Notes: generated by a model from the letters alone, not told the origin. Shown: positions 3,765-43,009, counted from the stretch's first letter. The stretch: DNA of 64,000 nucleotides from an uncultured delta proteobacterium (GCA_963848295.1 CAWKDB010000002.1:128001-192000); one strand, 5' to 3'. Numbers and translations are program-made.

Positions 3765-4621
3765 GCGCCACCACCTGCGAAGCTGACGATCCGATCGCGC
3801 ACGAGCGCGGTCGCCTCCCACAACACCGAATGCGTCGCGCCCGGCACGATCACGAGCTCGCAGCGCGGCAACGTGCGCGCGAGTTGTTCGCCGCGCTCGC
3901 GCACGTCCGACCGTTCGCCGTACAGCGCGAGCACCGGGCAAGCGATCCGCGCGAGCTCGTCATGGGCGACCGGTGGCGAGCGACGAAGATCGGCGACCAG
4001 CGTCGTGCCGTTGACGAGCGCCTCGGCCGCGGTCGCGAGTCGCGTCCGCTTGCGCTCGCTGTGCCGGCCGAGCCACGCCTGGAACGACTCGGCGATCTTC
4101 GCGTCGCGCGCATCGCCCTGCAGCGCGAGCGTCGCCGCCATCTGCGCGGCCCAGCCCGCCGTGCCGTCGTGCGCGTCGATCAGCGCGAGGCTCGCGACCT
4201 TGCCCGGCTGGGCCGCCGCGAGCGCGAGTGCGACCACGCCGCCGAAGCTATTGCCGACGAGGTGCACCGGGCCACCCGCGGCGAGCTCGTCGATCAGCGC
4301 GGCGAGATCCGCGACGAAGTCGCCGACCGTATAGCCCGTGGCCGGGCGCTCGGACATGCCGTGACCGCGCAGATCGTAGAGCATGACCTCGGCGCGCGTC
4401 GCGAGCGGGTTTGCGAGCGTGAAGTAGAAGCTCGACAGGTTGTCCATCACGAGGCCGTGGACGAACACGACCCGAGGACGATCGATCGCTCGGCGGTCCG
4501 CTGCGAAGCGAGGATCGCCGACACCCCAGTCCGAGGGTCCCCCGCGAAGCGGGGTCGCCACCGACCCGCCGCCGAGCCGCTGCACGTGATGGCGGACGCC
4601 GTTCGCGATCACGTCAGCCAA
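3761..4621 (-). CDS. Alpha/beta hydrolase (thioesterase-like) carrying an in-frame palindromic insertion
   Basis: HGL, YDLRGHG, GNSFGG nucleophile elbow, C-terminal His; TTG start overlaps the upstream gene. Confidence 0.85.
   Translation of the reverse strand: MADVIANGVRHHVQRLGGGSVATPLRGGPSDWGVGDPRFAADRRAIDRPRVVFVHGLVMDNLSSFYFTLANPLATRAEVMLYDLRGHGMSERPATGYTVGDFVADLAALIDELAAGGPVHLVGNSFGGVVALALAAAQPGKVASLALIDAHDGTAGWAAQMAATLALQGDARDAKIAESFQAWLGRHSERKRTRLATAAEALVNGTTLVADLRRSPPVAHDELARIACPVLALYGERSDVRERGEQLARTLPRCELVIVPGATHSVLWEATALVRDRIVSFAGGGA
4481..4554 (+). repeat. Dispersed three-hairpin palindromic element, family A, copy 1 (in frame in the hydrolase)
   Basis: gatcgc-tcggcggtcc-gctgcgaagcga-ggatcgccga-cacc...agggt-ccccgcgaagcgggg aligns with the 34449 unit. 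Confidence 0.8.
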
Positions 4622-5369
4622 GGTGCGCCTCGATCTCGCGCGCGAGCTCGGCGCGCGCGTCGAGGTGCAAGTAGTGGCCGCCCGGGAGGATCCGCAAGAT
4701 CGAGCCGGTCACCGCACGCGCGAGCCGCTCGCCCGCGGGCTTGCAGCTCGACCGATCGCCGTACGCCGCGAGCAACGGCGGCGCGAGCGTCGCGAGCTCG
4801 GCGTCGCCGAGATCGGGCTCGCCGCGAACATCGGCGAGCAAGCTCGAGTGCAGCGCGAGGAACTCGATGGATGCGACGAGCCGGGTCGCGGGCCGCCGAC
4901 CGCCGGCGACTGCTTCGCGCAGCGGTTGTGGCAACGCGGCGATCAGCTTCTGCGGATCGGTGGTGTCGAGAAACGAGGCCATCTCGAGTGCGCTCGAGGG
5001 CGGCAGCGGCGCCTCGACGACGACGATCCGGCGCACGCGGTCCGGATGATCGAGCGCGAATCGCAGCGCGACGAGCCCGCCCCAGCTGTGGCCGACGAGA
5101 TCGAACGGCGGAAGATCCGCGGTCAGCGCCTCGAGATCGCGCGCGAGCGTGCGGACGTCGTACCCGGTGGCGGCGCGTTCGCTGCGACCGTGGCCGCGCA
5201 GGTCGTAGACCCGAACGCGGCGGCGCGCCGCCAGCACGGGCGCGGCGGTGAAGTACCAGGATGCGAGGCTGCCGATCACGAGGCCATGGACCATGACGAT
5301 CGGCGTGGCGGTCGCGTCGCCCAACTCTTGGACGTGGAACGACAGCCCGTTCGCCGCTACGAGCGGCAT
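4614..5369 (-). CDS. Alpha/beta hydrolase (thioesterase-like)
   Basis: MPLVAANG start; HGL, YDLRGHG, GHSWGG, GGHY motifs. Confidence 0.85.
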   Translation of the reverse strand: MPLVAANGLSFHVQELGDATATPIVMVHGLVIGSLASWYFTAAPVLAARRRVRVYDLRGHGRSERAATGYDVRTLARDLEALTADLPPFDLVGHSWGGLVALRFALDHPDRVRRIVVVEAPLPPSSALEMASFLDTTDPQKLIAALPQPLREAVAGGRRPATRLVASIEFLALHSSLLADVRGEPDLGDAELATLAPPLLAAYGDRSSCKPAGERLARAVTGSILRILPGGHYLHLDARAELAREIEAHLG

Positions 5370-5650
5370 GATGCGATGAACTCCACGAGCTCGCCGACGG
5401 TCAACGCGATGATCTGATCGAGCTCCTTGCCCGAGATCCAAGCGACGAAGTCGACGCCGCCGCCGTAGTGCTGCTGGAGCTTTTCGGCGAGCGCGACGAA
5501 CTCGATGCTCTCGAGCTCGAGATCGGCGTTGAACGATGTCGTCATCGCGATCGGGCCGTCGAGCAGCAGCTCGTCGCCGACGATCTCGGTGACCAGCTGC
5601 TCGACCACGCGGAGGATCTCACCGCGATCGGCTGTGGGTGCGGCGGTCAC
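5357..5650 (-). CDS. Stand-alone acyl carrier protein
   Basis: 97 aa acidic protein with ADLELESIEFVAL (Ppant Ser) and TVGELVEFI; GTG start overlaps the PKS stop. Confidence 0.85.
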   Translation of the reverse strand: MTAAPTADRGEILRVVEQLVTEIVGDELLLDGPIAMTTSFNADLELESIEFVALAEKLQQHYGGGVDFVAWISGKELDQIIALTVGELVEFIASCRS

Positions 5651-8600
5651 GACGGGGTGCGCTCCAACGTGGTCCACGCGACGATATAGGGTCCTTCGCG
5701 CCGAGTGTCGATCGTGGCGTCGTCGATCGTCAGGCGATCGCCGTGCGCGGCGCGGACCTCGAGCTTGCGCGGATCGGTGACGCCGGTGCCGCGCGCTTTG
5801 CCGAGCGCCTCTTTCGCCGTCCACAACCGGGCGAGCCACTCGTCGCGCGGCCGGCCGGCACCCAGCGCGAGCTCGGCGGCGGTGAACGCGACGGCGACAA
5901 ACGAGGGCTCGCGCGACGCGATCTTTTCGATGTCGACTCCGACCGCGTGACGATCGTCGACGAGCGCGACCGCGACATCGTCTTTGTGCGCGACCGAGAC
6001 CTGGGGGGCGACCGCGCCGGTCGCGAGCGTGACGTGCGGGCGCCCGCCATCGTCGTTGCCGATCGCGACCTCGACCGGGAACATCTCGGCGCCGCCGCGG
6101 TGCCACAGGCGACGGCGCACCGCATCCTTGATCGCGATCCGCCCGAGCAGCCAACCGCGCCGGCGCGGCGCGGGCATCGCATCGTGCTCGGTGCGCTCGC
6201 GCTCGGTCAGGTAGCGCCGCATCATCAGCTCGCGCGATGCCGCCGCGTGCCAGTGCTCGGTGACGAGCGCGTACGGCTCGGCGGTCGCGAGCACGTTGCG
6301 CTCGGGGTACATCAGCACCGCCCACACGGCATCGTCGCTGTCGAACCGGCGATCTTCCCAGCCCGTGATCCGCGCCCACACGCGGCCGGCGTGCGTCAGC
6401 TCGAGATCGGCGCGGACCTCGCGCTCGCGCACGTCGCGAATCCGCACGCTGCACGCGACGCGCTCGCCGGCGGCGGGCTCCGGCCCGAACAGCTCGACGC
6501 GCTCGAGCCGGACCGGCATCGCGAGCCGATCGCGGGCCTCGGTCTGCATCACCCACCAGCCCATCAGCTGGCCGGCGCAATCGAGCAGCGCGCCGTGCGC
6601 CGGCAGCACCTCGATCACGCCGTCGACGCCGCGCTCGCTGCCGTTCGGACCGTCGGCCATCTGACCGAGCTCGGCGACGCCTTGATAAGCCGGGCCGTGG
6701 AACATCCAGCGATCGGCGTACATCCGCGCGGCGGTCATCGGCGCGGTCCGGGGTTCGGACAACGGCGCGAGTGCCGGCGCCGGTGCCGCGGGGAACGCAG
6801 CAGCGAGTCGGACCGTCGCGCGCGAATAGCCGGGAATCTCGACCTCGACCCGGTCGTCCGCGGTCCGGACACAACGCAGCTCGATCTCGACGGGCGGCGC
6901 GACCGCGAGCCAGCGATAGGCGCGGATGTCTTCGAGCGCGATGGCGACGCGATCCGGCGCGAGCGTGCGCGCGGCGTCGATCATCATCCCGATCGTCATC
7001 GTCATCGGCACGACCGGGTAGCGATCGGCGACGATCGGCCAGCCGGCCGGCTGGCGGTAGAAGCAGTGATCGAGCAGCGCGGGGTCGCTGTCCGCAGACA
7101 GCGACCGGCGGATCACGGCCTGACGCGGCGCCGCCGCCTCGTCGCGCTTGCGCCACGCCTCGACGATCGCGCGACTCGCGTCGGCCGCTGCGCGCAACGT
7201 CGCGAGCAGCTCGGCCGCGATCGGATCGGCCGAGAGCCCGGCCGGCGGCGCGAACGCGGTATTGATCGCTGGCATCGAGCCTCCGAGCTTGACGAGCGGC
7301 ACGCCGAGCGCGAGCGGCTGAGGCACGCGTGATGCCGAGACTCGTGCAGCGGGCTCGCCTGCGAGCTCCCAGCCGACGTCGAAGCCTTCCGCCCACAGCG
7401 CGGCGCCGACGCGCGCGAGCTGGCCGACGCCACCGTCCGCGTCCTTGTCGCTCGCTGCGGCGATCGCGAGATGGTCCTTGCCGCGCAGCGTGTCGCCGAC
7501 GAACCCCGCGAGGCTGCCGACGCCGAGCTGGACGAACGCGCGCACGCCACTGGCGTAGAGGTTGTCGACCAGCTCGCGAAACCGGACCGGTGCGACGAGG
7601 TGCTCGATCGCGAGCGCGCGGATCGCGACGGGGTCGTCCGGATACGGCGCGCACGTCGTCGCCGACCACAGCGGCAGCGCGCCGCGGACGAGCTCGAGCC
7701 CCGCGAGGTGACGGCGATGCGGCGCGAGATAGTCCGCGAATAGCGGCGAGTGGAAGCCCGACCGAAACGGCAGCTCCTGACACAGCACGCCGCGCGCACC
7801 GAGCCGTTCGATCGCGGTGCGCACGCGATCGCGCTTACCGCAGATGATCGCCTGATGCGGGCAGTTGTCGTGCGACACCGCGATCGCGTCGAGTCCGTCG
7901 AGCGCCTGCTCCGCGCCATTCGCACTGCAACCGACCGCGGCGAACACGACGTCGGGCACCTCGAGGCTGCCGGCGCCCAGCCCCGCGACGAACGCATCGA
8001 GCGCGCGCGGTGGGATCACGCCGGCGAGCGCCATGCCGGTCCACTCGCCGATGCTGTGCCCGGCGATCGCGTCGGCACGGACCCGCAGGCGATCGAGCGC
8101 CGCCGCGAGATAGCGACCGAGCGCGAACACCCCGAAGCCTCGGCGCTCGAGCTCGGCCGGCGTCGCGCCCTGCCCGGCTCGCGCGGCCTCGATCGTCGGT
8201 GGCAGCGGGACGCCGAGCGCGCGCGGCAGCTCGGCGATGGCCGGCGCGAACGCCGCCTCGACGCCGGGCGCGAGCAGGGCGATCTTGCCACCGTCGAGCG
8301 CGAACCCGCGCGGGGCGAAGAAGATGTCGTGATTGCCGCGCCACGGCTTGCCGCGATCGAGCACCTTGCCGGCCTGAGCGCGGCGCGCCGGCGTCGGATC
8401 GACGATCGCGAGCCGCAGCCTGCCGCGGCCGATCGCGGTCGGTCGTGGCCGATCGGTCGCGAGCCGAGCGCGCAGCTCGTCGATCGAATCGGCGGCGAGC
8501 GCGAGCACCTCCACGTGCCGATGGTCGGCGACCGCGACCGACACGCCCCCGCGCGGACGCGAGCCGGCGTGCTGCTCGAGCACGACGTGCGCGTTGATCC

Positions 8601-9927
8601 CGCCGAACCCGAACGCGCTGACCCCGGCGCGCCGGTCGTCGCCGCGCCACGGCTCGGCCGCGCCGATCACGCGAAACCGCGTGCGCTCGAGCTCGGGATG
8701 AGGATCGTCGCAGTGCAAGCTCGGCGGCAGCACGCCGTGATGGATCGCGAGCGCGGTCTTGATCAGGCCAGCCGCGCCTGCGGCGGGCATCGCGTGACCG
8801 ATCATCGACTTGACCGAGCCGACGACCGCGCGCGGACCGGCGCCGGCTGGCCCGAACTGTCGGCCGAGCGCGCGGAGCTCGACCTCGTCGCCGGTTGGGG
8901 TCGCGGTGCCGTGCGCTTCGACCAGACCGACCGTCGCCGGATCGCGTTCCGCGGCGCGCCACGCCTGGCCGAGCGCCGCGAGCTGACCATCGAGCCGCGG
9001 CCGCATCGGGCTCGCGCCAGAACCGTCGCTCGACACACCGGCGCCGCGCAGCACCGCATAGATCCGATCGCCGTCGCGCTCCGCATCGGCGAGCCGCTTC
9101 AACACGACGATGCCCGCGCCCTCGCCGATCAAGATGCCGTCGGCGCTGCGATCGAATGGCCGGATCCGCTGGGCGCGGCTGAGCGCGCCGAGCTGCGTGA
9201 ACACGCTCCAGAACGTGACGTCGTGACAGACGTGGACGCCGCCGGCGACGATCAGATCGCAGCGCCCGGACGCGAGCTCGCGCATCCCGTGATCGACCGC
9301 GATCAGCGAGCTCGCACACGCCGCATCGACGGTGTACGCCGGGCCGCGCAGATCGAGGCGGCTCGCGATCCGCGACGCCGCGAGGTTCGGCACCAAGCCG
9401 ATCGCGGTCTCGGGTCCGGCCTCGCCGGCGCGCGCTGCGAACGCCGTGCGGATCTTGTCGAGCGTCGCCGCGTCGAGATCGGGCACGAGCTCGGCGAGCG
9501 TCGTGACGAGCTGCTGCGCGGTGCCGATCCGCTGGGTCAGCCGCGCGATGCCCGGCGTGACGTAGCCGCCTCGGCCGAGGATTACCGCGGTGCGATCGCG
9601 CGGGACCGCGCACCCGGCGTCGTCGAGCGCCTTCGCGGCGACCGAGAGCGCGAGCAGCTGATCGGGCTCGGCGCCGGCGGCGGCGACGGGCATGATGCCG
9701 AACGCGATCGGATCGAACACCGGTTCGATGAACCCGCCGCGCCGACAATAGAACCGGTCCGCGCTCCCGGCCGGCGCGTTGTCCGCGAAGAACACCGGAT
9801 CGACGCGCGCGGCCGGAGCTTCGCGGATCGCGTCGACGCCGCCGGCGATGTTGCGCCAGTACGCGTCGAGATCGGGTGCGCCCGGAAACACCGCGGCCAT
9901 GCCGACGATCGCGACCGCGTCGGCCAC
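5647..9927 (-). CDS. Iterative type I PKS subunit, KS-AT-DH-PPTase
   Basis: KS VDAACASS/EAHGTAT/KSMIGH; AT GHSIGE/GFHS; DH LLDHC...VVP; Sfp-type VSVAH..VGVDIE..WTAKEA; GTG start overlaps the upstream TAG. Confidence 0.9.
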   Translation of the reverse strand: MADAVAIVGMAAVFPGAPDLDAYWRNIAGGVDAIREAPAARVDPVFFADNAPAGSADRFYCRRGGFIEPVFDPIAFGIMPVAAAGAEPDQLLALSVAAKALDDAGCAVPRDRTAVILGRGGYVTPGIARLTQRIGTAQQLVTTLAELVPDLDAATLDKIRTAFAARAGEAGPETAIGLVPNLAASRIASRLDLRGPAYTVDAACASSLIAVDHGMRELASGRCDLIVAGGVHVCHDVTFWSVFTQLGALSRAQRIRPFDRSADGILIGEGAGIVVLKRLADAERDGDRIYAVLRGAGVSSDGSGASPMRPRLDGQLAALGQAWRAAERDPATVGLVEAHGTATPTGDEVELRALGRQFGPAGAGPRAVVGSVKSMIGHAMPAAGAAGLIKTALAIHHGVLPPSLHCDDPHPELERTRFRVIGAAEPWRGDDRRAGVSAFGFGGINAHVVLEQHAGSRPRGGVSVAVADHRHVEVLALAADSIDELRARLATDRPRPTAIGRGRLRLAIVDPTPARRAQAGKVLDRGKPWRGNHDIFFAPRGFALDGGKIALLAPGVEAAFAPAIAELPRALGVPLPPTIEAARAGQGATPAELERRGFGVFALGRYLAAALDRLRVRADAIAGHSIGEWTGMALAGVIPPRALDAFVAGLGAGSLEVPDVVFAAVGCSANGAEQALDGLDAIAVSHDNCPHQAIICGKRDRVRTAIERLGARGVLCQELPFRSGFHSPLFADYLAPHRRHLAGLELVRGALPLWSATTCAPYPDDPVAIRALAIEHLVAPVRFRELVDNLYASGVRAFVQLGVGSLAGFVGDTLRGKDHLAIAAASDKDADGGVGQLARVGAALWAEGFDVGWELAGEPAARVSASRVPQPLALGVPLVKLGGSMPAINTAFAPPAGLSADPIAAELLATLRAAADASRAIVEAWRKRDEAAAPRQAVIRRSLSADSDPALLDHCFYRQPAGWPIVADRYPVVPMTMTIGMMIDAARTLAPDRVAIALEDIRAYRWLAVAPPVEIELRCVRTADDRVEVEIPGYSRATVRLAAAFPAAPAPALAPLSEPRTAPMTAARMYADRWMFHGPAYQGVAELGQMADGPNGSERGVDGVIEVLPAHGALLDCAGQLMGWWVMQTEARDRLAMPVRLERVELFGPEPAAGERVACSVRIRDVREREVRADLELTHAGRVWARITGWEDRRFDSDDAVWAVLMYPERNVLATAEPYALVTEHWHAAASRELMMRRYLTERERTEHDAMPAPRRRGWLLGRIAIKDAVRRRLWHRGGAEMFPVEVAIGNDDGGRPHVTLATGAVAPQVSVAHKDDVAVALVDDRHAVGVDIEKIASREPSFVAVAFTAAELALGAGRPRDEWLARLWTAKEALGKARGTGVTDPRKLEVRAAHGDRLTIDDATIDTRREGPYIVAWTTLERTPS

Positions 9928-12900
9928 TAGTTCTCCGCGGGCGACTCGACCACCGTGGCGGGCGTCTGTGCGGATGTCGCCGGTCGAGACCACAACGCAC
10001 GTGGATCTGCCGCCGACAGGATCACCTGCGGCTCGCCGACCGCGGCGAGCTCGTCGAGCACCGCCGCGACCCCGGCTTCGGTCGCGATCAGCTCGACGCC
10101 ACGCCGGGCGTACTCGCGCGCGAGCTCGGGCGACACCATACCGGCGCCGGCCCACGGCCCCCAATCGATCGAGACCACGCGCCCGCTGACCTTGCGCGCG
10201 AGCGACCATGCGAGCTTGTCGAGCGCATCGCCCGCCGCCGCGTAATCCGCTTGGCCGCGATTGCCGAACGCGCCGACGATGCTCGAGAACAGCACGACCA
10301 GCTTCGTGTCGGAGCGCAGCTTGTCGGCGATCGTGTGGGCGCCGGCGACCTTCGTCGCGTAGACCCGCTCGAACGCGTCGCCGGTCTTGTGCTTCATCAG
10401 CTTGTCGTCGAGCACGCCGGCGCCGTGGATCACGCCGTCGATCCGACCGCGCGTTCGATACAGCTCGTCGATCAGCGCGCCGAACTGCGGCGTGCGCACG
10501 TCGACCGCGTGGTACGTGCCGCGGTCCCCGAGCGCTGCGAGCGTCGCGCGGATCTCGCGGTCGGCGAGGATCCGCGCGCATCGTTTTTCGATCTCGGCAG
10601 GAGTCGCGCCCCCGACCGCGAGCGCGCGGCGCAGCGCCGGGGCATCGGCCGCCGCGACGAGCTCGGCCGGTTCGGCCCCGGGCAACGGCGAACGGCCGAC
10701 CAGCTCGATCCGGCAGCCGTAGCGCTCGGCGACGGCGATCGCGGTCCGCGCCGTGATGCCGCGAGCGCCACCGGTGACGAGCACGACCGATTGCGCATCA
10801 AACGCGGGCGGTCGGCCGAGCTCGCGCGGCGCGGGTTGCAGCTCGCGCGTCACCCGCTCTCCGGCGAGGTAGCCGATCTCGAAGTGCGCGTCGTGCGCGT
10901 GGAGCTCGGCATGAACGAGCGCGGCGACATCGGCGGTGCCTGGCTCGACGTCGACGACGCGTGCGCGAATCGCCGGGAACTCGGCGGCGACGGTCTTGAC
11001 CAGGCCCGCCGGGCCACCGAGCACGTCGCCGGCTTGCTGGCCGAAACCGCCGTGTGCGGTCACGACGATGATCGTCTTGGCCCCGGCGAGCGCGGCTTCG
11101 CGCACGCGCTCGAACTGCGCGCGCATCGCGGCGACCGAGTCGATCCTGCCGAGATAGACGAGGCCATCGAGCTCGTCGCCGAGCGCGATGGCGCCCGCGA
11201 CGCGGCGCACCGTCGCGCCCTCCGCGAACAGCTTCGCCTCGAGCGCGATCGCGACATCGTCGTCGCCGCCGCAGATCGCGATGCGCTGACCGGCGAGCGT
11301 CGAATAGCCGTTGACCGGCGCGGGCGCCGGCACGATCGCGAGGCGATAACGACCGACCTGCGCGCCCGCGGTGGCGCCGGTGCGAATCGGGCCGGTGTCG
11401 GCGTCGTCGGCGGCGGCGATCGGAGCCGCGGCGTCGACCGTCGATGTGATCGGCGACGGCGCGCCGGCCGCCGGGGTGGCGAGCCGTTCGGACAGCCACG
11501 CGACGAGTGCGCGCAACGTCTTGCGGGTAGCGAGCTCTTCGACGATCGCATCCGCGTTGCCGTCGCCGTCGACCTTCAGCCCGAGCCGCTGCGCGAGCTC
11601 GCCGATGATCTCGATCCGCTTGATCGAGTCGATGCTGAGATCGGCCTCGAGGTCGAGATCGACGCCGAGCGTGTCGATCGGATAGCCGGTGCGCTCGCTG
11701 ACGATCGACAGCACGAGCTGCATCGGGTCGACGACGGCTGGGGTCTCTCGCACGGGCTGGGGCACCGGGGCTTCCGCAACTCGAGCCGGCGACGGTCGCG
11801 AGCGACGGCAGCTCGATGACCTCGAGCGCGCGAGCCGGCACCGCGCCGAGGTACGACAGCATGACGTCGCGTTGCGCCGCGATCATCTCGCGCATGCCGC
11901 GCAGGTACTCGACCACGACACCTTCGCGCTCCCCACCGGGGGCGATCGTCGAGCTACTCGGGCGGCCAGGTGAACGCATGGCGGGTACCTCTGAGCGAAC
12001 GGCGACCATCGGCTGCCGTTCCGCGGCGTGCAGTGTCTCACCTTCCGGCCTCGCCGAGTGTCCGTTGACCAACCAGCGCGGCCCCTTCGCGACGACCGGC
12101 GGGGTGTCGAGATCGAGCACCGCCGCATCGCGATCCCAGAACAGCGGCGCCGGATCGACCGCGACGCCGGCGGCGGCGAGCGTCGCGAACGCGCGCATGA
12201 GCTGGCGCAGGCCCGCATCGCCGATATCGCACGCGACCGCGACGTGGGGTCGATCGCCGAGAATCTCGCCGACGAGCTTGGTCAGTACTTGACCCGGGCC
12301 GGCCTCGACGAACACGCGCGCACCAGCGTCGTACATCGCGCGGATCTCGTCCGCGAACCGCACGGGGCTCGCGACTTGTTCGGCGAGCAGCTCGCGCACC
12401 GCCTCGGCGCGCCCGGGATACGGGGCCGCGGTCACGTTCGAGTACACCGGGAAGGCCGGCGGATAGGTCTCGATGTCGACGAGGCGTTGCGCGAGCGCCG
12501 TGCGCGCACCGGCGACGATCGGGCTGTGGAACGCGCACGCGACGGGCAGCTTGCGCGCGGCCAGGCCGGCGGCGCCGACGAGCACGAGCGCCATGTCGAT
12601 CGCCGCGGTGCCTCCCGACAGCACGCACTGGGCCGGCGAGTTGTGGTTTGCGACGACGACGCCGTCGATCTCGGCGACGAGCGGTGCGACGACCGCAGCA
12701 TCGGCCGCGACCGCCGCCATCGCGCCCGGATCGCTGCCCGCGGCATCGAGGATCGCTTCGCCGCGCGCGGCGCTGAGCGCGAGCAGATCCGCTTGGCCGT
12801 ACGCGCCCGCGAGGCAGAGCGCGACCAGCTCGCCGTAGCTATGGCCGGCGGCCATCGCCGGCCGCACGCCGCACAACGCGAGGATCTCGGCCACCGCGAG

Positions 12901-15900
12901 ATCGGCGATGCCGAGCGCGGGCTGCGCGACGCGGGTGTCGGTGAGCGCCGCGAGCTGCGCCGCCTTGCCGTCCCGAGTGAACGCCGCCGGCGGATAGAGT
13001 GTGCCGGCCCATGGCGCGCCGAGCTCGAGCAAGCGATGCAGGCGCGGAAACGCGACGAACAGCTCGGCGAGCATGCCCGGCCGTTGGCTGCCCTGCCCCG
13101 GGCACAGGATCGCGAGCTTGCCGTCGATCGCACCGTCGATCGGTGCCGCGAACCACACGCCGCGCCGATCGGCAGTCCCCTGCCGCGCGAGCGCGAGCTT
13201 CGCCGCGAGATCCGCGACCGAATCGGCGACGATCGCGACTTGCACCGGGCCATCGCCGGACAGGCATGCGGTGCGCGCGAGGTCGCGCAGCCGCGGCGGC
13301 TCGAGTGCGTCGGCGATCCGCTGCTCGAGCTTGCTGCCGATCACGAGCGCGGCGGCGCGATCGCTGCCGCGCAGCAACACGAGCTCGGCCGGCCACGCGC
13401 CGGTCGCGGGCAGCTCGTCGCCACCGCCGCGATGCGCGGTGAGCACGGCGTGGAAGTTCGTACCGCCGAACCCGAACGCGCTGACCGCGGCGACGCGCTT
13501 CTCGGTCGCCCACGGCCGCGCCTGATCGAGGAACACGAACGGGCTCGTGTCGCCGTCCCACGCGGAGTTCGGCTTCTTGATGTTGAGCGTCGGCGGCAGC
13601 ACGCCGTGATGGATCGACAGCGCGGCCTTGATCAGGCCCGCCATGCCGGCGGCGCACTTCGTGTGCCCGATCTGCGACTTGACCGAGCCAAGCACGCACG
13701 CGCCGACCTCGGCGCCCGCGTTCGTGAAGACCTCGGTCAGCGTCTGCAGCTCGGTGCGATCACCGACGACGGTACCCGTGCCGTGCGCTTCGACCAGCCC
13801 GACGTCGGCGGCCGACACTCCGGCCTGGCGATACGCGCGATCGAGCGCGCGGACCTGCCCGTCCTTGCGCGGCGCGGTCAGCCCGAGGCTCTTGCCGTCG
13901 CTCGCGCCCGCAACGCCTTTGATCACCGCGTAGACGCGATCGCCGTCGCGCTCGGCATCGGCGAGCCGCTTGACCACGATGCACGCGACGCCTTCGCCGA
14001 GCACGATCCCGTCGGCCGCCGCATCGAACGTATGACACTGGCCGGTCGGCGACAGCGCGTGCACGCTCGAGAACATCAGGTAGTCGTTGATGCTGTTGTG
14101 CAGATCGGCGCCGCCGCACAACACCATGTCGGAGCTGCCCGCGACCAGCTCTTTGACCGCCATGTCGAGCGCGGCGAGCGACGCGGCGCACGCGGCATCG
14201 ACGGTGTAGTTGACGCCGCCGAGATCGAGCCGGTTCGCGATCCGGCCGGCGATCACGTTCGACAGCACGCCGGGGAACGAATCCTCGGACAGCGTCGGCA
14301 GCGACTCGTCGAGGCCGGCCGGCAAAGGGCCGACGTAGTGCGGGAACAACGCGCGGAAGCTGTACGCGCTCGACAGATCGGTGCCGGCTTCGGCGCCGAA
14401 GATCACCGACGTTCGCGCGCGATCGAACGGGCGATTCCCGTACCCGGCGTCGGCGATCGCCCGCCGCGCGATCTCGAGCGACAACAGCTGGACCGGCTCG
14501 ATCGCGTTGAGCGACTTCGGCGGGATGCCGTACGCGAGCGGGTCGAACGGGACGTCGTCGAGAAACCCGCCCCACTTGCACGGCGTCTTCTTGCCGGCAT
14601 CGGCGCCCACCGCGGCCGGGTCGTAATACGTCTCGACGCTCCAGCGCTCGGCCGGGACCTCGCGGATCGCGTTCTTGCCAGCGACGATGTTCGACCAGAA
14701 CGCGTCGGTGTCGGGCGCGCCCGGGAAGATCGCGGCGACGCCGATGATCGCGACGTCGGTGCCGCGTCCGCCCGCGAGCTCGTCGTGATCACGGGCATCC
14801 GCGACTTGGTGAACGCGCGCGGTGCCACCGACCGAGACGTCGCGATGCAGATCGAGCACGCTGCACGTCCCGCGGCGCAGCGCGGCGACCTGGCCGATCA
14901 TGAACATCCCCTCGCGCGCTTGGACCTCGGCATCGACCGGCGCGATCACGTCGCCGGTGCGGCGCAGGCCTTTCGCGGCGATCCGCAGCCGGCCGAGGTT
15001 GAGCTGCTCGAGCGCGGCCCAGATCTCCTGCGGCGTGGCGCCGGCGACTTCGAGCCGCGCGCGCTCGTCGGCGAACGCGTTCGTGAACTCGGTGTCGGCG
15101 CAGCGGGTCGAGTGCCCGGGCGCGGTCTCGACCAGCACCGTGCGATCGCACGCGATCGCGGCTTGCTGGAAGCCTGGTTGGATCGCGCCGCACAGCACCG
15201 CCTCGTCGGTGAACAGATACGCCGTGCCCATCAGCACGCCGATCTTCGCGCCGCGTGCCGCGAGCGGCGCCGCCATCGTCGCGACCATCGCCGCGGAGCG
15301 CGCATCGTGAATACCGCCCGCGAACAACACGTGGAGCTCGCTCGGATCGGGGTGCGCGAGCAGCCGCTCGAGCTGCACTTCCCACAGCGCGAAGCTCGAG
15401 CGCGGCCCGACGTGCCCGCCGCACTCGCGGCCTTCGAACACGAACTTGCGCGCGCCGTCCTTCAAGAACAGCTCGAGCAAGCCCGGCGACGGCACGTGCA
15501 AGTACGTCGCGGTGCCCTGCGCCTCGAGCGGATGCGCCTGCGATGGGCGGCCGCCCGCGATCAGCGCGACCGGCGGCGGCAGCTCGCGCAACACCTCGAG
15601 TTGTTGCTCGCGTACGTCGGGCGGGACGAACCCCAAGATCCCGACGCCCCACGGCCGATCGCCGAGCAGCTCGCGGGTCTCGCGCAACAGCTCGCGGACC
15701 TCGTTGCCGGTCATCAGCGTCAGCGCGAGGAACGGCAGGCCGCCGCCCGACGCGACCGCTTCGGCGAAGCGCGCGCGATCCGACACGCGCGACATCGGGC
15801 CTTGCGCGATCGGATACTTCACGCCGTGCGCCGCAGCGAGCGGCGAGCGCGGCCCGAGCGGTGCGTACGCGACGGCGTCGGCGAGGTGGGTCTCGATCGC

Positions 15901-16698
15901 CGAGCGCACGCCGCGGATCAACGCCGCGCACGTCGGGAACTGCTGCGCGAGCGCGCGAGCGAGCGCGCCGTCCTGACCGACCGGCACGAGATCGCGGTGC
16001 AGATCGTCCCCGCCGAGCAGCGCGCGGACGTCGCCGGCTGCGGCGCGAGCCATCTGCGCGACCGGCAGATCGGGCCGCGTGAACACGCGATAACCGGCGA
16101 GCACGACGGTCTCGCTGCCGTCCATCGCCGCGATCGCCGACTTGATCGGCGCCGCGAGTGATGACTCGCGAACCAACGCGAGCTGCGAATCGAGCACGAC
16201 GCCCGCCGCGCCGCCCGCGATACACGCCGCCGCGGTATGCAGGCCGATGCCGCCCTGCGCCCAGACCGGAACGTCGAGCGCCGCGACCAGGCGCTGGACC
16301 AGCACGAACGTCGTCTCTTCGCCGACGCGGCCTCCGGCCTCGTGGCCCTTCGCGATCACGCCGGCCGCGCGCGCTGCGATCGCGGCACGCGCTTCGGCCT
16401 CGGACGTGACCTGGACGTAGACGCAATGATCGGCGAACCGCGCGATATCGGCGACCGACTCGACGATCACGGTGTGGACTTGTGGCGGCAGCTCGGGGGC
16501 TGAAGCGCCCTCGGGGACGCGGACGCCGAAGCCGCGGGGGAGTCGGCGCGCCAACGCGGCGAGCGCGCGCTCTGCCACTGCGGGATCGCGTCCGAGATCG
16601 AGGACGCCCAGCGCACCGGCGTCGCACGCGGCCGCGACCAACCCGGGATCGGGGCGGTCCAGGGGCGAGATGCCGATGACTTCGAACACTGCAGTCAT
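9927..16698 (-). CDS. Pfa-like iterative type I PKS, ER-ER-KS-AT-ACP-KR, split by one frameshift near 11770-11810
   Basis: Two nitronate-monooxygenase-like barrels (GHEAGGRVG, GRECGGHVG); KS VDAACAAS/HGTGT/KSQIGH; AT GHSYGE; Pfa-type ACP DLSIDSIKRIEI and KR VTGGARGIT/GQADYAAA in the second frame (ORF 9927-11765). Confidence 0.85.
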
Positions 16699-16877
16699 GA
16701 GCGGTCCGACGGTACCAGCCGGGTACTTCAAGCGTCGAGGCCCTAGTTTGCCACGCGCTGTAATGATTTAGGGCGGTTGGTTGCCATACCGATGTAAAGA
16801 ATCAGCGTCATCGACGGGGCGATCTTGGTGACCGATTCATGACAGGGCCGGGTCGGCATTCTGACCGTAGATCGGCG

Positions 16878-24710: not shown

Positions 24711-24735
24711 CGCACGAGCGTACACCCGCGGCGCG

Positions 24736-25926
24736 TCAGTTCCCAATCCAACCCCACCACTCGCTGACCGACTCGCCGCCGACGAACGACTCGATCAACA
24801 AGACGCTGCCGCCGTTCGCGCCCGACGCCACGCGGTAGATCGTCAGATCGAGCTTCGAGCCGTTGTTGCCGGTCGGCTGATCGAACGCGAGCTGCAGCTC
24901 GCTCTGGGTGTGGAACAGGTCGTGGTCGGCGTCGTAGGCCTCGACCTGCCAGTCGGTCGTCGGCTCGTCGCTGAACAAGTCGACCTCGACCTGGACCGTC
25001 GTGCCGGTCGCGACGCTGACCCCCGGCGTCGTGATGGCGTTGCCCTCGGCGTCGATGAACGGCAACTGATCGCTGAACACCGGCTCGGCCGCGACGTAGG
25101 GCATCGCCAGCGCGGGCACGCATGGATCGTGCGAGGTCAACGCCGCCGCGTTCGACCACGTGCGCTGCACGTAGTAGTCGGTCTGGTCGAGCTGCGTGAA
25201 CGCATCTTGGACGTACTCGCACATGTCGCCGAGCTCGCCACCGGGCGAGACCCCCCACACCGCGTGCGCGGCGTCGGTGTTCTGATAGGCCGGGTTGCTG
25301 AACGGGAATGGATCGCTCGAGGCTTCGACCAGCTCGTGACTCGTCACGATCGTGAGCGAGGGCAAGTCGCCGCTGCACCGGGGCAGCAGCGCATAGACCA
25401 CGCCGCCCGGCGTCTCGTCGTGATAGCCGCCGAAGTCGAAGCAGCTCGTCCCGAACGGCGTCGTCTCGGTGATGCCATCGGGCAAGAACACCGCGTAGAT
25501 CGTGTTCGGCGTGGTCGCGGGCCAGCCGTGAACGCCGGCGCTATTCGTCGTGATCAGCGCTTGCAGATCGGCATCGCTCGTCGGCGGCGGATCGGTGTCG
25601 ACGACGGTCGGCGCGATCGCGATGTCGCCGATGCCGTACTCCGCGGTCGTCGCGTGCCAATACGACGAGCCCGGCAGCGCCGCGAGGTAGCCCTCGACCT
25701 GCGATTGCATCATCGAGTCGCCGGCGAAGAACACCGGCACGACGAGCGGTGCGGAGAGCACCGGCCCGGCGAGCGGGACGACCTGCGGTTGCGCCCCGTG
25801 CGGCGCGGTCACGAACGGCGCGGCATCGACGCTCGCATCGACGACCGCGGCATCCGGGCCGGTCGACTCGCCGAACGAGAAGCAGCCGCCGAAGGCGAGG
25901 ATCGCCAGCCCCGAGGCGGATCGCAA
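24736..25926 (-). CDS. Secreted lipoprotein, paralogue 2 of 3 (start uncertain, abuts a repeat element)
   Basis: FGGC lipobox-like; same motifs SHELVEASSDP, GELGDMC, VQRTWSN. Confidence 0.72.
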   Translation of the reverse strand: MRSASGLAILAFGGCFSFGESTGPDAAVVDASVDAAPFVTAPHGAQPQVVPLAGPVLSAPLVVPVFFAGDSMMQSQVEGYLAALPGSSYWHATTAEYGIGDIAIAPTVVDTDPPPTSDADLQALITTNSAGVHGWPATTPNTIYAVFLPDGITETTPFGTSCFDFGGYHDETPGGVVYALLPRCSGDLPSLTIVTSHELVEASSDPFPFSNPAYQNTDAAHAVWGVSPGGELGDMCEYVQDAFTQLDQTDYYVQRTWSNAAALTSHDPCVPALAMPYVAAEPVFSDQLPFIDAEGNAITTPGVSVATGTTVQVEVDLFSDEPTTDWQVEAYDADHDLFHTQSELQLAFDQPTGNNGSKLDLTIYRVASGANGGSVLLIESFVGGESVSEWWGWIGN

Positions 25927-25992
25927 GATCGGCTGTCCGTCGCGAAGCAAGGACGGCCGAGTCCTCGCGCCGAGGGGCCCCCGTTTACGGGG
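25927..25992 (+). repeat. Family A palindromic element, copy 2
   Basis: tcggctgtcc-gtcgcgaagcaa-ggacggccga-gtcctcgcgccgagg-ggccccCgtttacgggg. Confidence 0.8.
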
Positions 25993-26002
25993 CGCCGGCC
26001 AG

Positions 26003-27208
26003 CTACTGCGCGACATAGCCCCACCACTCCGAGACGGAGTGGCCATCGACCGTCGACTCGATCAGCACGATGCTGCCGCCGCCATCGCCGTTCGCGAGCC
26101 GACGGATCGTCAGCTCGAGCTTCGAGCCATTGTTGCCGGTGGTGTGATCCCACGTGAACGCGAGCTCGGGCTGACTCCCATAGAACTGGTTGTCGGCGTC
26201 GATCGCTTGCACCGTCCAGTCGGCGGTGGGGGTATCGGCAAACAAATCCACCTCGATCGTCGCGGACGAGCCGTTCGTGACCGTCACGCCCGGCGTCGTG
26301 ATGCTGTTGCCTTCGACATCCTCGAACGGCAGCTGCTCGGTCAGCACCGGCTCTGCGCCGAGGTACGGCGTGGCCGGCAGGTCGGGCACGCACGGGTCGT
26401 GTTGCGCGGCAGCCGCGGCGTTCGACCAGGTGCGCTGCACGAGGTAGTTGCCGACGAGGATCTGAAATGCCGAGTGGACGTACTCGCACATGTCGCCGAG
26501 CTCACCGCCCGGCGCGAGACCCCAGATCGCGTGCATCGCGTCGGTGGTCTGATAGGCCGGGTTGCTCGAGAACAGCGGATCGCTCGACGCTTCGATCAGC
26601 TCGTGCGACAGCGCCGGCGTGAGGCCCGACAGGACGCCGCTCGTGCAACGCGGCAGCAGCGCGTACACGATCGAGCCGGCTTGGGTCTCCGCGTGATAGC
26701 CGCCGAAGGAGTCGCAGCTCGTGCCGAACCCCGTCGATAAAGTCACACCGTCCGGCAAGAACACCGTGTAGATCGTGTTCGGCGTGTTCGCGGGCCAGCC
26801 GTGCGCGCCGTCGCTGTTCGTCGTGATGAACGTCTGCAGCGCTGCATCGGTCGTGGGCGGCGGATCGCTCGACACGATGCTCGGGGCGATCGCGATGTCG
26901 CCGATGCCGTACTCCGCGGTCGTCGCGTGCCAATACGTCGAGCCCGGCAGCGCCGCGAGGAAGCCCTCGACCTGGGCTTGCATCGCATCGTCGCCGGTGA
27001 AGAAGATCGGCACGACGAGCGGCGCGGTCAGCACCGGGCCGCCCAGCGTGACCGCTTGGGGCTGGGCTCCGTGCGGGGCGATCGCGAATGCGGCGTCGAC
27101 CGGCGTGGCATCGGGCAGCTCGGCGTCGGGTCCATGATCGTGCGAGCCACCGCCGCCGCAGGCACCAAACGCGAGCAGCCCGGCGAGCGCGAGCGACGGG
27201 TTCCACAT
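26003..27208 (-). CDS. Secreted lipoprotein, paralogue 3 of 3
   Basis: LAFGAC lipobox; SHELIEASSDP, GELGDMC, LVQRTWSN; closely similar to both neighbours. Confidence 0.75.
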   Translation of the reverse strand: MWNPSLALAGLLAFGACGGGGSHDHGPDAELPDATPVDAAFAIAPHGAQPQAVTLGGPVLTAPLVVPIFFTGDDAMQAQVEGFLAALPGSTYWHATTAEYGIGDIAIAPSIVSSDPPPTTDAALQTFITTNSDGAHGWPANTPNTIYTVFLPDGVTLSTGFGTSCDSFGGYHAETQAGSIVYALLPRCTSGVLSGLTPALSHELIEASSDPLFSSNPAYQTTDAMHAIWGLAPGGELGDMCEYVHSAFQILVGNYLVQRTWSNAAAAAQHDPCVPDLPATPYLGAEPVLTEQLPFEDVEGNSITTPGVTVTNGSSATIEVDLFADTPTADWTVQAIDADNQFYGSQPELAFTWDHTTGNNGSKLELTIRRLANGDGGGSIVLIESTVDGHSVSEWWGYVAQ

Positions 27209-27341
27209 GCGAGGATCAGACACCGCGACCTCGGCGGTGTCGAGGACGCCCCGGCCAACACCCTCTCACCGGGCGAGACTCGCGCCATTCACAGAGCCGC
27301 CCGGTGATCGCGTCGCGTCCGGCGAAGTAAGGGCGATGTCC

Positions 27342-28133
27342 TTACGGGCGCCTGCGACCCCAGGCGGCAATCATCGGCGCGGTCACGACCTCGACGCGTC
27401 CAGCCGCGACGTTCGCGACATGGCGATCGACCTGCTCGTCGGTGGCATGGCCCTTGGCGACGAGCGCTGAACGTAAGATCTCGATCGTCGCGAGCTCGAG
27501 AGTGGCGAGCTCCGGCATCGCGACCGGGAACTGCGCCTCGGCGCGAACGTCGACGAGTCCGGCGGCGCGCAGCCGGCGCGGCAACGTCCGGCCAAAGCCG
27601 AGGTCGGCACCGCGGTCCGCGAGCAGCGCGCGAAAGCCGGTGCGGATGTGGTTCGCGAGCGCGTGCTCGGGCGTGATCGCATCGAGATGCGCGAGCGGTT
27701 GTAGCGCTGGATCGGCGTCTTCGATCAGCAGCCAGCCGCCGGGGGCGAGCGTCGCGACCATCGCGCGCAGCGCGGCGTCACGATCGACGACGTGGACCAG
27801 GACGAGCCGCGCGTGGACGAGATCGAACTGCTCGGCAGGAGCCGGATCCGCCGCGACGTCGTGGCGGCGAACTTCGATCGGCGCCGAGGCCGCGGCGTCC
27901 ATCCACGCCGTGTCGAGATCGGTCGCGAGCACGCGCCCGGTCGAGCCGACCTGCGCGCCGAGCCAGCGCGGCACGTTGTCGCCGCCGGCGCCGACCTCCC
28001 ACACCCGCCAACCCGCCGCGATGCCGAGCGCGCCGATCCGGCGAAACGTAGCGGGATCGAACAATGCCGACATCGCCGCGAAGCGCCGCCCCGCTGCGGG
28101 TGCGCGGTTGTCGAGCAGGTACCCGGCGGTCAC
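27342..28133 (-). CDS. Class I SAM-dependent methyltransferase
   Basis: VWEVGAGG, FDLVHARLVLVHV, LAPGGWLLIED motifs. Confidence 0.85.
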   Translation of the reverse strand: MTAGYLLDNRAPAAGRRFAAMSALFDPATFRRIGALGIAAGWRVWEVGAGGDNVPRWLGAQVGSTGRVLATDLDTAWMDAAASAPIEVRRHDVAADPAPAEQFDLVHARLVLVHVVDRDAALRAMVATLAPGGWLLIEDADPALQPLAHLDAITPEHALANHIRTGFRALLADRGADLGFGRTLPRRLRAAGLVDVRAEAQFPVAMPELATLELATIEILRSALVAKGHATDEQVDRHVANVAAGRVEVVTAPMIAAWGRRRP

Positions 28134-33302: not shown

Positions 33303-33418
33303 CGGAACCTCCGACTGTCGGCAACGGTAGAGCGAATCAACGAATGGCGCAATGGAATCGAACTTCGACGTGTCTCGTGCGTTGCTATGATCAGCCCGAC
33401 GATAGGGCTTGGGTGGAT

Positions 33419-34429: not shown

Positions 34430-34442
34430 TAGTTTCGGCGAC

Positions 34443-36272
34443 GTGAGGGGCCTGAGCCGCACCGATCGCTCGGCTGTCCGTGCGAAGCAAAGGACGGCCG
34501 ACACCTTGCGGCGAGGGTCTCCCTTTAGCGGGGGCCTGAGCCGCACCGATCGCTCGGCTGTCCGTGCGAAGCAAAGGACGGCCGACACCTTGCGGCGAGG
34601 GTCTCCCTTTAGCGGAGGCCTGAGCCGCACCGATCGCTCGGCTGTCCGTGCGAAGCAAAAGACGGCCGACACCTTGCGGCGAGGGTCTCCCTTTAGAGGG
34701 AGCCTCTTCGTCGCCGCGGCGCTGAGCTTCGTGCTCTCGACCCCGACGGCGCGCGCCGACTCCGACGACGGAACGCGGTCGATCTATCGCGGCGTGATCG
34801 ATCGGGTCGAGGTCGAGCCCGCGACGATCGGCGGCTATCGCCTCCGGATCTATCTGTCGGCGCTCGCGCTTCAGGGTCAGGTGCTCGACCTCACGGATCC
34901 GAAATCGCTCAAGCTCTACCTCGGCACGAGCGAAGAGAAGGCGCCGTACGCGCTCGGTCGCTACGCCGCGACCGATGCAGACACCGCGATCGTGCTCGTC
35001 ATCCAGGTGACGCAAGACTTCGCCGACGCGTTGCCCGCGATCGGCGATGCCCTATCGAGCGCGGCGCTCGCCCCGATAGGTGAGCACACGGAGGTCGCGG
35101 TGATCCCGTTCGGCGACGCGCCCGGCCAGGCCAAGCTCGGGACGGTCAAGCAAGCGCACGCGAAGCTCGAAGGGCTCGCGACCGACGGCACGAGCGGTGA
35201 CCCGGGCCTGCTCGACGCACTCGACCGTGCGCTCGGCTTGTTGCGCAAAGCGAAGACCACGCCGGAAGGTCGCCCGCTCCGCAAGGTGATCATCATCGTC
35301 GGCGACGGTCGGGACCGCGCGGGCGATCGCGATCGCGTGACTCGGCTCGGCACGCGCGCCGGCAAAGAAGGCGTGCGGATCGATGCGGTCGCTTACTCCG
35401 CGAACAAGGTGCTGCGGCCGATGCTCACCCTCGGCGAGCTCGCGAAGCGATCGCTGGGCACGTTCCGCTGGGTCCGCACGTCGACCCCCGATTCGTGGAC
35501 CGCAGCGTTCAAGCAGCTCGGCGAAGAGCTCGCGCAGCAATACGTGCTGACCTACTTCGTGTTCGACAACCCCGCGGGCAGGCGCGTCCACCTCGTCAGC
35601 GTCGGCCGGACCGAGCTGACGTCGAACGAAGTGCGCGTGCCCCCGGCCGGGTGCGGTGGCAAGCCCTGCGACCCGGGTGCCTACTGCGCCTCGGACCGCT
35701 GCGTGATGCCGCTGCAAGACAGCGAGCGCGGCATCCTCGGCTGGGTGCTGATCATCGGTGGCGCGATCGTCGGCGGGCTCGTCATCCTGGGCTTCGTCGG
35801 CGCCGCGATGTCTCGCCGGCAACATCGGCTGAGACCGATGATGCCGCCAGGCGTGATGCCGCCAGGCGTGATGCCGCCAGGCGTGATGCCGCCAGGCGTG
35901 ATGCCGCCGGGCTATCCCGCGATGCCCGCGGCGCTGCCGATTCCACCGCCGGTCGTCGCGCCGCAACCCGCGCACCAAGGGCCGATCGCGGCGCTGCTCG
36001 TCGTCAACGGGCCGCGCGCCGGAGAGCGCCTGCTCGTCCGCAACGGCTTCGTGATCGGCAAGCAGCCGGGCTGCGACCTCGTGATCGAGGACGGCTTCAC
36101 GTCGAGCCAACATGCGCAGATCGCGATGGATCGGCTCGGCAACTGCTATCTCTACGACCGCGGCTCGACCAACGGCACGTTTGTCAACGGCTCGCGCATC
36201 GCCGAGGCTCCACTCGCCCACGGAGTCGTCATCCGGATAGGCTCGACAGAGCTGCGGTTCTTGGCACAATGA
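34443..36272 (+). CDS. Membrane protein with a vWA-like exported domain, TM helix, Pro-rich linker and C-terminal FHA domain (N-terminus overlaps 3 repeat copies; start uncertain)
   Basis: IIIVGDG (vWA-like), TM segment, MPPGV repeats, FHA IGK...SSQHA...GSTNGTFVNG. Confidence 0.8.
   Translation: MRGLSRTDRSAVRAKQRTADTLRRGSPFSGGLSRTDRSAVRAKQRTADTLRRGSPFSGGLSRTDRSAVRAKQKTADTLRRGSPFRGSLFVAAALSFVLSTPTARADSDDGTRSIYRGVIDRVEVEPATIGGYRLRIYLSALALQGQVLDLTDPKSLKLYLGTSEEKAPYALGRYAATDADTAIVLVIQVTQDFADALPAIGDALSSAALAPIGEHTEVAVIPFGDAPGQAKLGTVKQAHAKLEGLATDGTSGDPGLLDALDRALGLLRKAKTTPEGRPLRKVIIIVGDGRDRAGDRDRVTRLGTRAGKEGVRIDAVAYSANKVLRPMLTLGELAKRSLGTFRWVRTSTPDSWTAAFKQLGEELAQQYVLTYFVFDNPAGRRVHLVSVGRTELTSNEVRVPPAGCGGKPCDPGAYCASDRCVMPLQDSERGILGWVLIIGGAIVGGLVILGFVGAAMSRRQHRLRPMMPPGVMPPGVMPPGVMPPGVMPPGYPAMPAALPIPPPVVAPQPAHQGPIAALLVVNGPRAGERLLVRNGFVIGKQPGCDLVIEDGFTSSQHAQIAMDRLGNCYLYDRGSTNGTFVNGSRIAEAPLAHGVVIRIGSTELRFLAQ
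34449..34700 (+). repeat. Family A palindromic element, 3 tandem 84-bp copies
   Basis: Units start at 34449, 34533, 34617 and are nearly identical; each encodes GLSRTDRSAVRAKQRTADTLRRGSPFSG. Confidence 0.95.
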
Positions 36273-36278
36273 GGATCT

Positions 36279-38431: not shown

Positions 38432-38443
38432 AGGCGCCCGAGC

Positions 38444-38515
38444 GGGCCCGAGCCGAGCCGATCGCTCGGCTGTCCGCGCGAAGCAAAGGACGGCCGACAC
38501 CACACGGCGCGGGCC
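38444..38515 (+). repeat. Family A palindromic element, partial intergenic copy
   Basis: ccgatcgctcggctgtccgcgcgaagcaaaggacggccgacacc is nearly identical to the 5' part of the 34449 unit. Confidence 0.88.
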
Positions 38516-38537
38516 GGCGTTGTTGTAATGTCCGCGC

Positions 38538-40669: not shown

Positions 40670-40705
40670 GCGCCTATCTTACCCGCACGGTCGCGTCGCG
40701 GGCGG

Positions 40706-42013
<1,308 letters not shown>

Positions 42014-42049
42014 CGGCGCGCAGCGTAGCCGAGATGCGGCACCGAGCCG

Positions 42050-43009
42050 ATGGCGGTCGCAAAATATTCGGGCTACGGTGGCGGCGTGTCTGGATGGCAA
42101 GCGATCGTCGGCCAAGACCGCGTGATCGCGCTGTTGCGCGGCGCCATCGAGCGCGACCGCGTGCCGCACGCTTATCTATTTTCGGGCCCGGTCGGCGCGC
42201 CGCTGCTCGACACCGGGCTCGCCCTCGCCTGCGCGTTGAATTGCCTGACCTCGCCGGGCGAAGGCTGCACCGGCGCCGCAAGCGGCGGACCTTCGGCCCA
42301 GGGTGTCGGCCATCCTCATTCTTCGGACGGCCGAACGATCGATCAGCCTCAGGTCTGCGATGCCTGCTCGAAGATCATCGCGGGGATCCACCCCGATGTC
42401 GTGACGCTCGTGCGCGAAGGCGCCGCGCAGATCGTGCCGATCGAGAACGTGCGCAACCAGGTGATCGCGCGGATGGGCTTGCCGCCGCACGAGGCCGACA
42501 CCCGCGTGTTCATCATCGAAGAGGCGACCGCGCTGGCGCCCCCGGCGGCGAACGCGCTGCTGAAGACGCTCGAGGAGCCACCGAACCGGACGTTGTTCGT
42601 GTTGTGCACGACGTCGCCCGAGCAGCTGTTGCCGACGATCCGCAGCCGGTGTCAGCGCGTGCGCTTCGCGGCCGGGTCACCGATCGCGGATGCCGATCCG
42701 GCGCGCGCGGAACGGATCTCGGCGCTCGCCGACGAGCTCGCGAGCGTGGATGAAATCCGCGACCCGTGGTTGCCGGTGCGCGTCGCCGAAACCAAGGGCG
42801 ATGCCGCGCCGGTGCTGGTCGCGGCGGCGCAACGGCTTCACGCCAAGGCGATCGCGGCGGCGGCAGCCGGCCAGCTCGAGGTGGCGGCGCGAGCCTCGCG
42901 CCAGGCGCAGACCGTGCTGTCGTGGCACACCGCGATCGCGATCCACAACGCGAACCCGCAGCTCGCGATCGAAGCGGTGATCGCGCAGATCGCCGAGGAG
43001 CGCGCGTGA
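42050..43009 (+). CDS. holB: DNA polymerase III delta-prime subunit, with an insertion in the Zn module
   Basis: IVGQ, PHAYLFSGP, HPDV, AANALLKTLEEPP, LLPTIRSRCQ; lies upstream of PSP1 and metG. Confidence 0.85.
   Translation: MAVAKYSGYGGGVSGWQAIVGQDRVIALLRGAIERDRVPHAYLFSGPVGAPLLDTGLALACALNCLTSPGEGCTGAASGGPSAQGVGHPHSSDGRTIDQPQVCDACSKIIAGIHPDVVTLVREGAAQIVPIENVRNQVIARMGLPPHEADTRVFIIEEATALAPPAANALLKTLEEPPNRTLFVLCTTSPEQLLPTIRSRCQRVRFAAGSPIADADPARAERISALADELASVDEIRDPWLPVRVAETKGDAAPVLVAAAQRLHAKAIAAAAAGQLEVAARASRQAQTVLSWHTAIAIHNANPQLAIEAVIAQIAEERA
42274..42344 (-). repeat. Family A palindromic element, diverged copy in frame in holB
   Basis: Reverse complement gatcgt-tcggccgtcc-gaagaatga-ggatggccga-caccctgggccgaaggt-ccgccgcttgcggcg. 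Confidence 0.75.

Follow-up and report, generated by a model that had tools for sequence, protein, structure and literature searches.

A structure-conserved and recently mobile repeat family of 79-85 nucleotides in one myxobacterial genus

A 64,000-nucleotide (nt) stretch of DNA from an uncultured delta proteobacterium (GCA_963848295.1 CAWKDB010000002.1:128001-192000), referred to at its full length as the window, holds seven copies of a short structured repeat at five loci. The copies, and the stem arms quoted for them, had been picked out from the sequence by a first-pass annotation and were found as described. Here, we report that the repeat family to which they belong is conserved in structure and recently mobile. 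It is a new repeat family of one myxobacterial genus, and the surprise is limited because its behaviour is of a kind already known for Rickettsia palindromic elements (RPEs) and for intragenic repetitive extragenic palindromic sequences (REPs).

A hidden Markov model (HMM) was built iteratively from the window copies and used to scan the 7.78-Mb genome to which the window belongs (the own genome, G000; 85% complete) at a threshold of E<1e-5. This genome-wide scan, one of the checks suggested by the first-pass annotation, returned 58 copies at 51 loci; the reversed genome, scanned as a control, gave three matches, the best with an E of 0.29. Twelve further copies, at 12 loci, belong to a sister subfamily whose inner stem differs, and they bring the totals to 70 copies and 63 loci. 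The unit is 79-85 nt long. At the first window locus it begins at 4470 and not at 4481 as initially annotated, the real start lying about 12 nt upstream.

Base pairing was assessed from a sequence-only alignment of 44 of the 70 own copies. The fold with the best support consists of a long rod followed by a short 3' hairpin. The rod is composed of a 4-bp foot, a tandem GA/GA mismatch, four pairs, an internal loop, a 10-bp stem and, in most copies, a 2-bp GC-GNA-GC tip, and double changes are seen at 20 of the 25 pairs. In 61 distinct copies from several genomes covariation extends to 24 of the 25 pairs, a set that was fitted to the model and is hence biased towards it. The covariation anticipated at first pass is therefore present, and two of the three stems then proposed are upheld in the 44 copies, with double changes at 6 of 10 pairs of stem 1 and at all five pairs of stem 3. 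The proposed middle stem (cct/agg) was rejected: it shows a double change at one of four pairs and 81% pairing, and it shares its 3' bases with a better outer stem, missed at first pass, in which 8/8 pairs covary and pairing reaches 91%. The sequence of the inner stem changes between genomes, with YGAG, GATC, GTCC/GGA, CCT and CGAR remaining constant. Among the 46 of 58 copies that parsed, inner-stem mismatches comprise 47 G-T versus three A-C, indicating that one specific strand folds. The tip loop is GNA in 46/70 copies (GAA 27, GCA 14, GGA 4, GTA 1), and GCGAAGC, which had been noted in most copies, occurs in six of the seven in the window; the copy at 42274 has a different loop. GNA triloops and tandem pairs in a Y-GA-R context are particularly stable when formed in DNA. 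Because single copies fold only modestly better than shuffled sequences (RNA z -0.95 to -2.84), the structure rests on covariation. Mutual information gave no convincing additional pairs or pseudoknot outside the model, and no Rfam family was matched at its gathering score. The GA/GA stem resembles domain 2 of the hammerhead, and a hammerhead-like RNA was rejected because the remaining core is absent when the sequence is set against the hammerhead consensus.

Evidence of mobility comes from comparison with a sister genome (G107), which is 86-91% identical and carries 50 copies. Nine in-gene sites were compared, four of them in the window and five elsewhere, the calls at the latter resting on DNA alignments; sites in TsaE, a PP2C-like gene and C10:4410355 were left out. 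Eight of the nine are empty in G107. At 4470..4553 (+ strand) an 84-nt full copy lies antisense and in frame in an alpha/beta-hydrolase gene (3761..4621, - strand; PF12697), to which it adds 28 codons before the first core strand, and G107 is empty here by a net 84 nt. A second 84-nt full copy, at 25909..25992 (+ strand), again antisense and in frame, sits in the N-terminal signal region of a lipoprotein-like gene (24736..26015, - strand; no NCBIfam match) whose start near 26015 was inferred from the G107 orthologue; G107 is empty by a net 90 nt. Three tandem paralogous lipoprotein-like genes, this host among them, occupy window 23529-27223, and an NCBIfam match was absent for one that was tested. 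An 81-nt full copy at 42274..42354 (- strand) lies antisense and in frame in holB, the gene for DNA polymerase III delta-prime (42050..43009, + strand; TIGR00678, E 1.6e-43, under the curated cut-off). Not only is this site empty in G107, the insert is also absent from 28/28 holB orthologues. It separates cysteines 73 and 103, which are two residues apart in 22/28 orthologues, so that HolB is here longer by exactly 27 residues; the remaining 6/28 have shorter, unrelated loops. The insert falls in a low-confidence AlphaFold loop (residues 76-99). The five further sites are empty by 81 nt in Mfd, RecG and a glycosyltransferase gene, 84 nt in a helicase gene and 234 nt at an array in a GNAT gene.

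The ninth site holds three head-to-tail 84-nt units (34450..34701, + strand), in sense and in frame directly after the GTG start of a gene for a predicted membrane protein with a C-terminal FHA domain (34443..36272, + strand). Here G107 holds a single copy of another subtype. A contig of sequencing run X3 skips 34447-34748, and a contig of this run shows a net 81-nt gap at the holB insert; a second comparison with sequencing runs gave no joint at the two copies. Outside genes, the window copy at 38446..38516 (+ strand), which is without the last hairpin, is present in G107 too. A degenerate sister-subfamily copy at 27286..27347 (+ strand), absent from the first-pass list, is intergenic and full-length at the same site in G107. 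Looking in the other direction, 38 G107 copies had flanks that could be mapped, of which 27 are without a full copy in the own genome and 11 are common to both. An aminoacyl-tRNA-synthetase-like gene (the label is our own reading) is empty in the own genome at one codon where two other genomes carry the element in opposite orientations, the insertion points agreeing to within one base. The empty orthologous sites, the covariation and the 27-28 residues added to host proteins agree with the first-pass proposal of a non-autonomous mobile element that is selected for structure and adds peptide to proteins. A partial copy at G000:C2:1077902-1077946 was also observed, in the opposite orientation to a full copy that G107 carries there.

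According to gene calls from our own gene model, 12 of the 63 loci lie inside genes (10 internal, 2 N-terminal) and 51 are intergenic. Since coding density is about 87% in this genome, genes are strongly avoided by the repeat or purged of it. In-frame insertion into proteins, the leading feature of the first-pass description, is borne out at four of the five window loci; genome-wide, gene invasion is the minority case, and the description was to this extent overstated. The internal hosts are the hydrolase, holB, Mfd, RecG, TsaE, a DUF4011/AAA helicase, a PP2C-like protein, a glycosyltransferase, a GNAT protein and one unnamed gene, and 8/12 in-gene loci are antisense. No in-gene copy causing a frameshift was detected among the 63 loci. 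We rejected the possibility that frame preservation is intrinsic to the element because the exact tandem period is 84 in two in-gene arrays versus 85, 79 and 81 in three intergenic arrays, with 82 also seen outside genes, and clean intergenic gaps measure 82-86 nt. Frame preservation is therefore best read as a filter. Given the variable unit length and the low share of genic loci, selection likely keeps the reading frame of the genic copies.

Copies were detected with a covariance model (CM) in 18 of 40 genomes of one Kofleriaceae genus; G010, which has none, is counted among the 40. No copy was found in 45 genomes from 16 other genera of the family or, with a broader model, in 139 other genomes of the phylum, a few dozen candidates being scored per genome. 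A pattern scan of 185,579 species returned 54 stretches, of which 43 pass the CM and are titled Kofleriaceae (42) or Deltaproteobacteria (1); the other 11, from named taxa outside Kofleriaceae, fail the CM and were rejected. Viral, phage and plasmid collections gave no match to the repeat. Twelve metagenome matches were obtained, but these are not independent because they bear a single assembly prefix and several are at sites already seen in G107. In one relative, G070, the unit at L358:1425-1630 sits inside a larger repeat, about 190 nt long, that has terminal inverted repeats and a DNA fold z of -7. The second module of this larger repeat was counted 31 times in G070 and is also present in 23 viral contigs and on alphaproteobacterial (Sphingobium-group) plasmids. 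One of its frames matches the RPE5 model weakly (E 0.053), and it may resemble Caulobacter CIR cores.

The ends of the unit carry no long terminal inverted repeats and pair internally or by only about 4 nt. Clean junctions, read by eye, mostly fit an exchange directly after the conserved G that precedes YGAG by four bases, and an element end within the G-run of the short hairpin; the 3' register of the right junction is uncertain by one base. At the foot, G at -4 is fixed (44/46), -5 is A in 22 copies and G in 16, and -6 is mixed. Overlaps at the junctions range from 1 to about 10 nt, and target duplication is of no fixed length. The tetramer that follows CGAR can pair with the four bases to the left of the start in 94-97% of 79 copies, exceeding all 2000 shuffles; the left-junction bases involved are mostly borne by the element.

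On balance, we give about an even chance to the reading that this transposase-free repeat moves as folded single-stranded DNA (ssDNA) on which a Y1/HUH (TnpA-REP-like) enzyme, provided in trans, performs the cutting and pasting. Such an enzyme is the best guess because of the structural likeness of the repeat to its known substrates. The folded form would be DNA, as suggested by the GC-GNA-GC tip with its free middle base, the tandem GA in a Y-GA-R context and the occurrence of either orientation in genes. Strand exchange would take place directly after G, the targets being G|C-rich and similar to the junction of the element itself, and the tetramer at the 5' foot of the short hairpin may pair with either end in the manner of IS608 guides, which sit at the 5' foot of a hairpin (PMC8266576). 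The candidate Y1/HUH enzyme would act from an unlinked gene. Genic copies would survive only if they are divisible by three in length and sit in a tolerant loop or N-terminus.

The own genome contains nine Y1 matches. Two of these proteins were tested and score higher with the REP tyrosine transposase model than with that for IS200, yet under its cut-off. The own Y1 genes belong to a decaying family similar to insertion sequences, about 1.2 kb in size and with a 5' repeat of its own. A 170-nt structured repeat, present at L005:960-1160 and 11 other places in G000, lies upstream of 6/9 Y1 matches. One Y1 gene and one copy of our repeat are 2.2 kb apart, the copy being at the start of another gene. 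Genes for Y1 proteins and for reverse transcriptases (RTs) are each found in 38/40 genomes of the genus, and the co-occurrence of either with the repeat is therefore uninformative. The linked RAYT/IS200-type transposase that the first-pass annotation had thought worth seeking was not found among these Y1 genes, which are unflanked by the element.

Several observations weigh against movement by a Y1/HUH enzyme. No copy abuts any of 47 Y1 loci, in genomes that are incomplete, and the flanks of 78 repeat loci from relatives contain no Y1 match. G070, which is 98% complete, carries 23 copies and has no PF01797 match. The 5' repeat of the own Y1 family resembles the element weakly, over about 18 nt (empirical P 0.006-0.06, from non-independent copies). 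Folding does not favour DNA, the mean z for 46 full copies being -1.76 as DNA and -2.82 as RNA, and there is no replication-strand bias (32/63 loci). Pairing between the tetramer and the right junction is weak, at 0.51-0.66 over the three target positions (P 0.04 in the own genome, 0.03 in G107 and 0.81 in others). Several junctions have direct repeats of 4-5 nt, which also fit a short target duplication. Finally, among the matches listed, some of the 27 sites without a full copy in the own genome keep element ends and are probably deletions. The near-complete carrier without PF01797 leads to a variant that we consider rather unlikely, in which the repeat is a self-guided ssDNA mini-transposon of a new architecture and depends on an unlinked enzyme other than a classical Y1. 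Its internal tetramer would take turns in pairing with the two junctions, left and right, and with the target, and its identity would be read from DNA-specific structure (tandem GA, GNA tip, internal loop), leaving the stem sequence free to change.

Some of the same observations are compatible with there being no dedicated transposase. Hairpins could stall replication, and host enzymes could spread the repeat by template switching and microhomology-mediated recombination. The lack of a linked enzyme, the variable junction overlaps, sites that keep element ends alone, the different subtypes at 34450 in the two sister genomes and the fact that 4/10 internal hosts are DNA replication or repair genes are all consistent with this explanation, which is possible, though unlikely, because clean full-length insertions of 81-86 nt at unrelated sites, unpaired motifs conserved across genomes and strand-specific pairing suggest recognition by a protein. 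Alternatively, an RT might copy a structured RNA or an msDNA-like product for reinsertion. Folding at least as good in RNA as in DNA, the prevalence of RTs in the genus and the short direct repeats at some junctions would suit such a retro-mobile unit, for which a precedent, proposed for msDNA-like repeats of Nannocystis, is named in two reference titles of PMC6868368. However, the three own RT genes (G000:C11:619500, C11:721418 and C2:795818; many truncated copies are present genome-wide) look like group II intron RTs by our reading of their sequences and have no repeat copy nearer than 4.9 kb, none of 20 RT loci from carriers holds a copy (best E 0.038), and most copies are full length, making this route distinctly unlikely.

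The repeat might also serve the host as an RNA hairpin at gene ends, as an mRNA stabiliser or terminator-like structure, with the in-gene copies as by-products. Besides the preponderance of intergenic loci, 15/51 intergenic copies are in convergent gaps (P 0.016) and 12/28 copies begin no more than 15 nt from a stop codon, a pattern that REPs follow as well (PMC3733652). We find this quite improbable, as sense and antisense copies are equally frequent between co-directional genes (13 and 13), sites turn over between the sister genomes and no Rfam family reaches threshold. Most improbable, in our view, is another recombinase, either of the IS110 type or a tyrosine recombinase that works, like that of integrons, on folded single strands: exchange after G on a folded strand and location after stop codons resemble the attC sites of integrons, yet the ends have none of the attC core motifs, and no IS110 match came up in the 85%-complete own genome, in a search that did not extend to integron integrases.

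Other repeats were also observed in the own genome. Two more abundant REP-like families, frequently in inverted pairs, occupy 46 and 32 dispersed loci. In the window, a tandem array of 57-nt units at 30711-31116, with about 30 BLAST matches in the genome, is distinct from the 79-85-nt repeat, as neither the HMM nor the CM matches it. An element with 38-nt inverted arms of short repeats lies between convergent genes at 55358-55519, its 16-mers recurring at 13-17 dispersed loci, and two very long genes with repeats in common span 5647-16731.

The mechanism of RPE-like mobility has been open since the first description of these elements, and the present family offers a test set: one genome with about 70 copies, a sister genome with clean empty sites, mapped junctions, a structure fixed by covariation and genomes that differ in stem sequence but keep the fold. 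It also shows that core genes tolerate 27-28 additional residues at the DNA level; among them are HolB, with its insert between zinc-module cysteines, Mfd and RecG.

On the features tested, the repeat fails membership of the RPEs, REPs, miniature transposable elements with inverted repeats (MITEs) and multicopy single-stranded DNA (msDNA) repeats. In keeping with the first-pass impression that this is not a described family, no description of it was found in the literature searched, which omits most subscription journals and supplements such as the REP tables of PMC3733652. As summarised in PMC2229807 and PMC10969869, which also cover CIRs, RPEs are short palindromic repeats of 105-150 nt, partly in frame in unrelated conserved genes, nearly half of them genic, whose mobiliser is unknown. 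Like them, our repeat is inserted in frame into unrelated conserved genes and is absent from orthologues. Unlike RPEs, it is 79-85 nt long, has no terminal inverted repeat closing the whole unit and is genic at only 12/63 loci; its use of both orientations and several frames yields unrelated peptides, and 0/4 insert peptides match NCBIfam RPE models at E<=1. DDE-type MITEs differ in having terminal inverted repeats and target duplications of fixed length. Retron msDNA repeats differ too, as our sequence is absent from the subset of RT loci scanned (3 own and 20 from relatives). REPs and bacterial interspersed mosaic elements (BIMEs) have several features in common with the repeat. In-frame REPs 20-30 residues long, frequently within DNA-repair genes, are on record, as are REPs at stop codons (PMC3733652), and our repeat is likewise mostly intergenic, near stop codons and convergent ends, with tandem arrays and in-frame copies in DNA-repair genes (PMC3733652; PMC8266576). 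Table 1 of PMC2817692 lists REPs with GC-GNA-GC tips linked to REP-associated tyrosine transposases (RAYTs), and such tips and an internal AA bulge are shared. However, the repeat is two to three times longer and its arrays run head-to-tail, not inverted; it also has no conserved GTAG or CGTC foot and flanks no rayt gene (0/47 Y1 loci, incomplete genomes). Palindrome-associated transposable elements (PATEs) have no transposase, no terminal inverted repeats, terminal palindromes and no fixed target duplication (PMC3119063). In contrast to PATEs and the IS200/IS605 group, no IS200/IS605 element with the repeat's ends was found, and there is no fixed 4-5-nt target or replication-strand bias. The junctions of the repeat show overlaps of 1-5 nt, sometimes more. 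What the repeat shares with these elements is the absence of transposase, coding capacity, terminal inverted repeats and a target duplication of fixed length, palindromic ends, a similar minimal size and, at the 5' foot of the last hairpin, a tetramer (PMC8266576).

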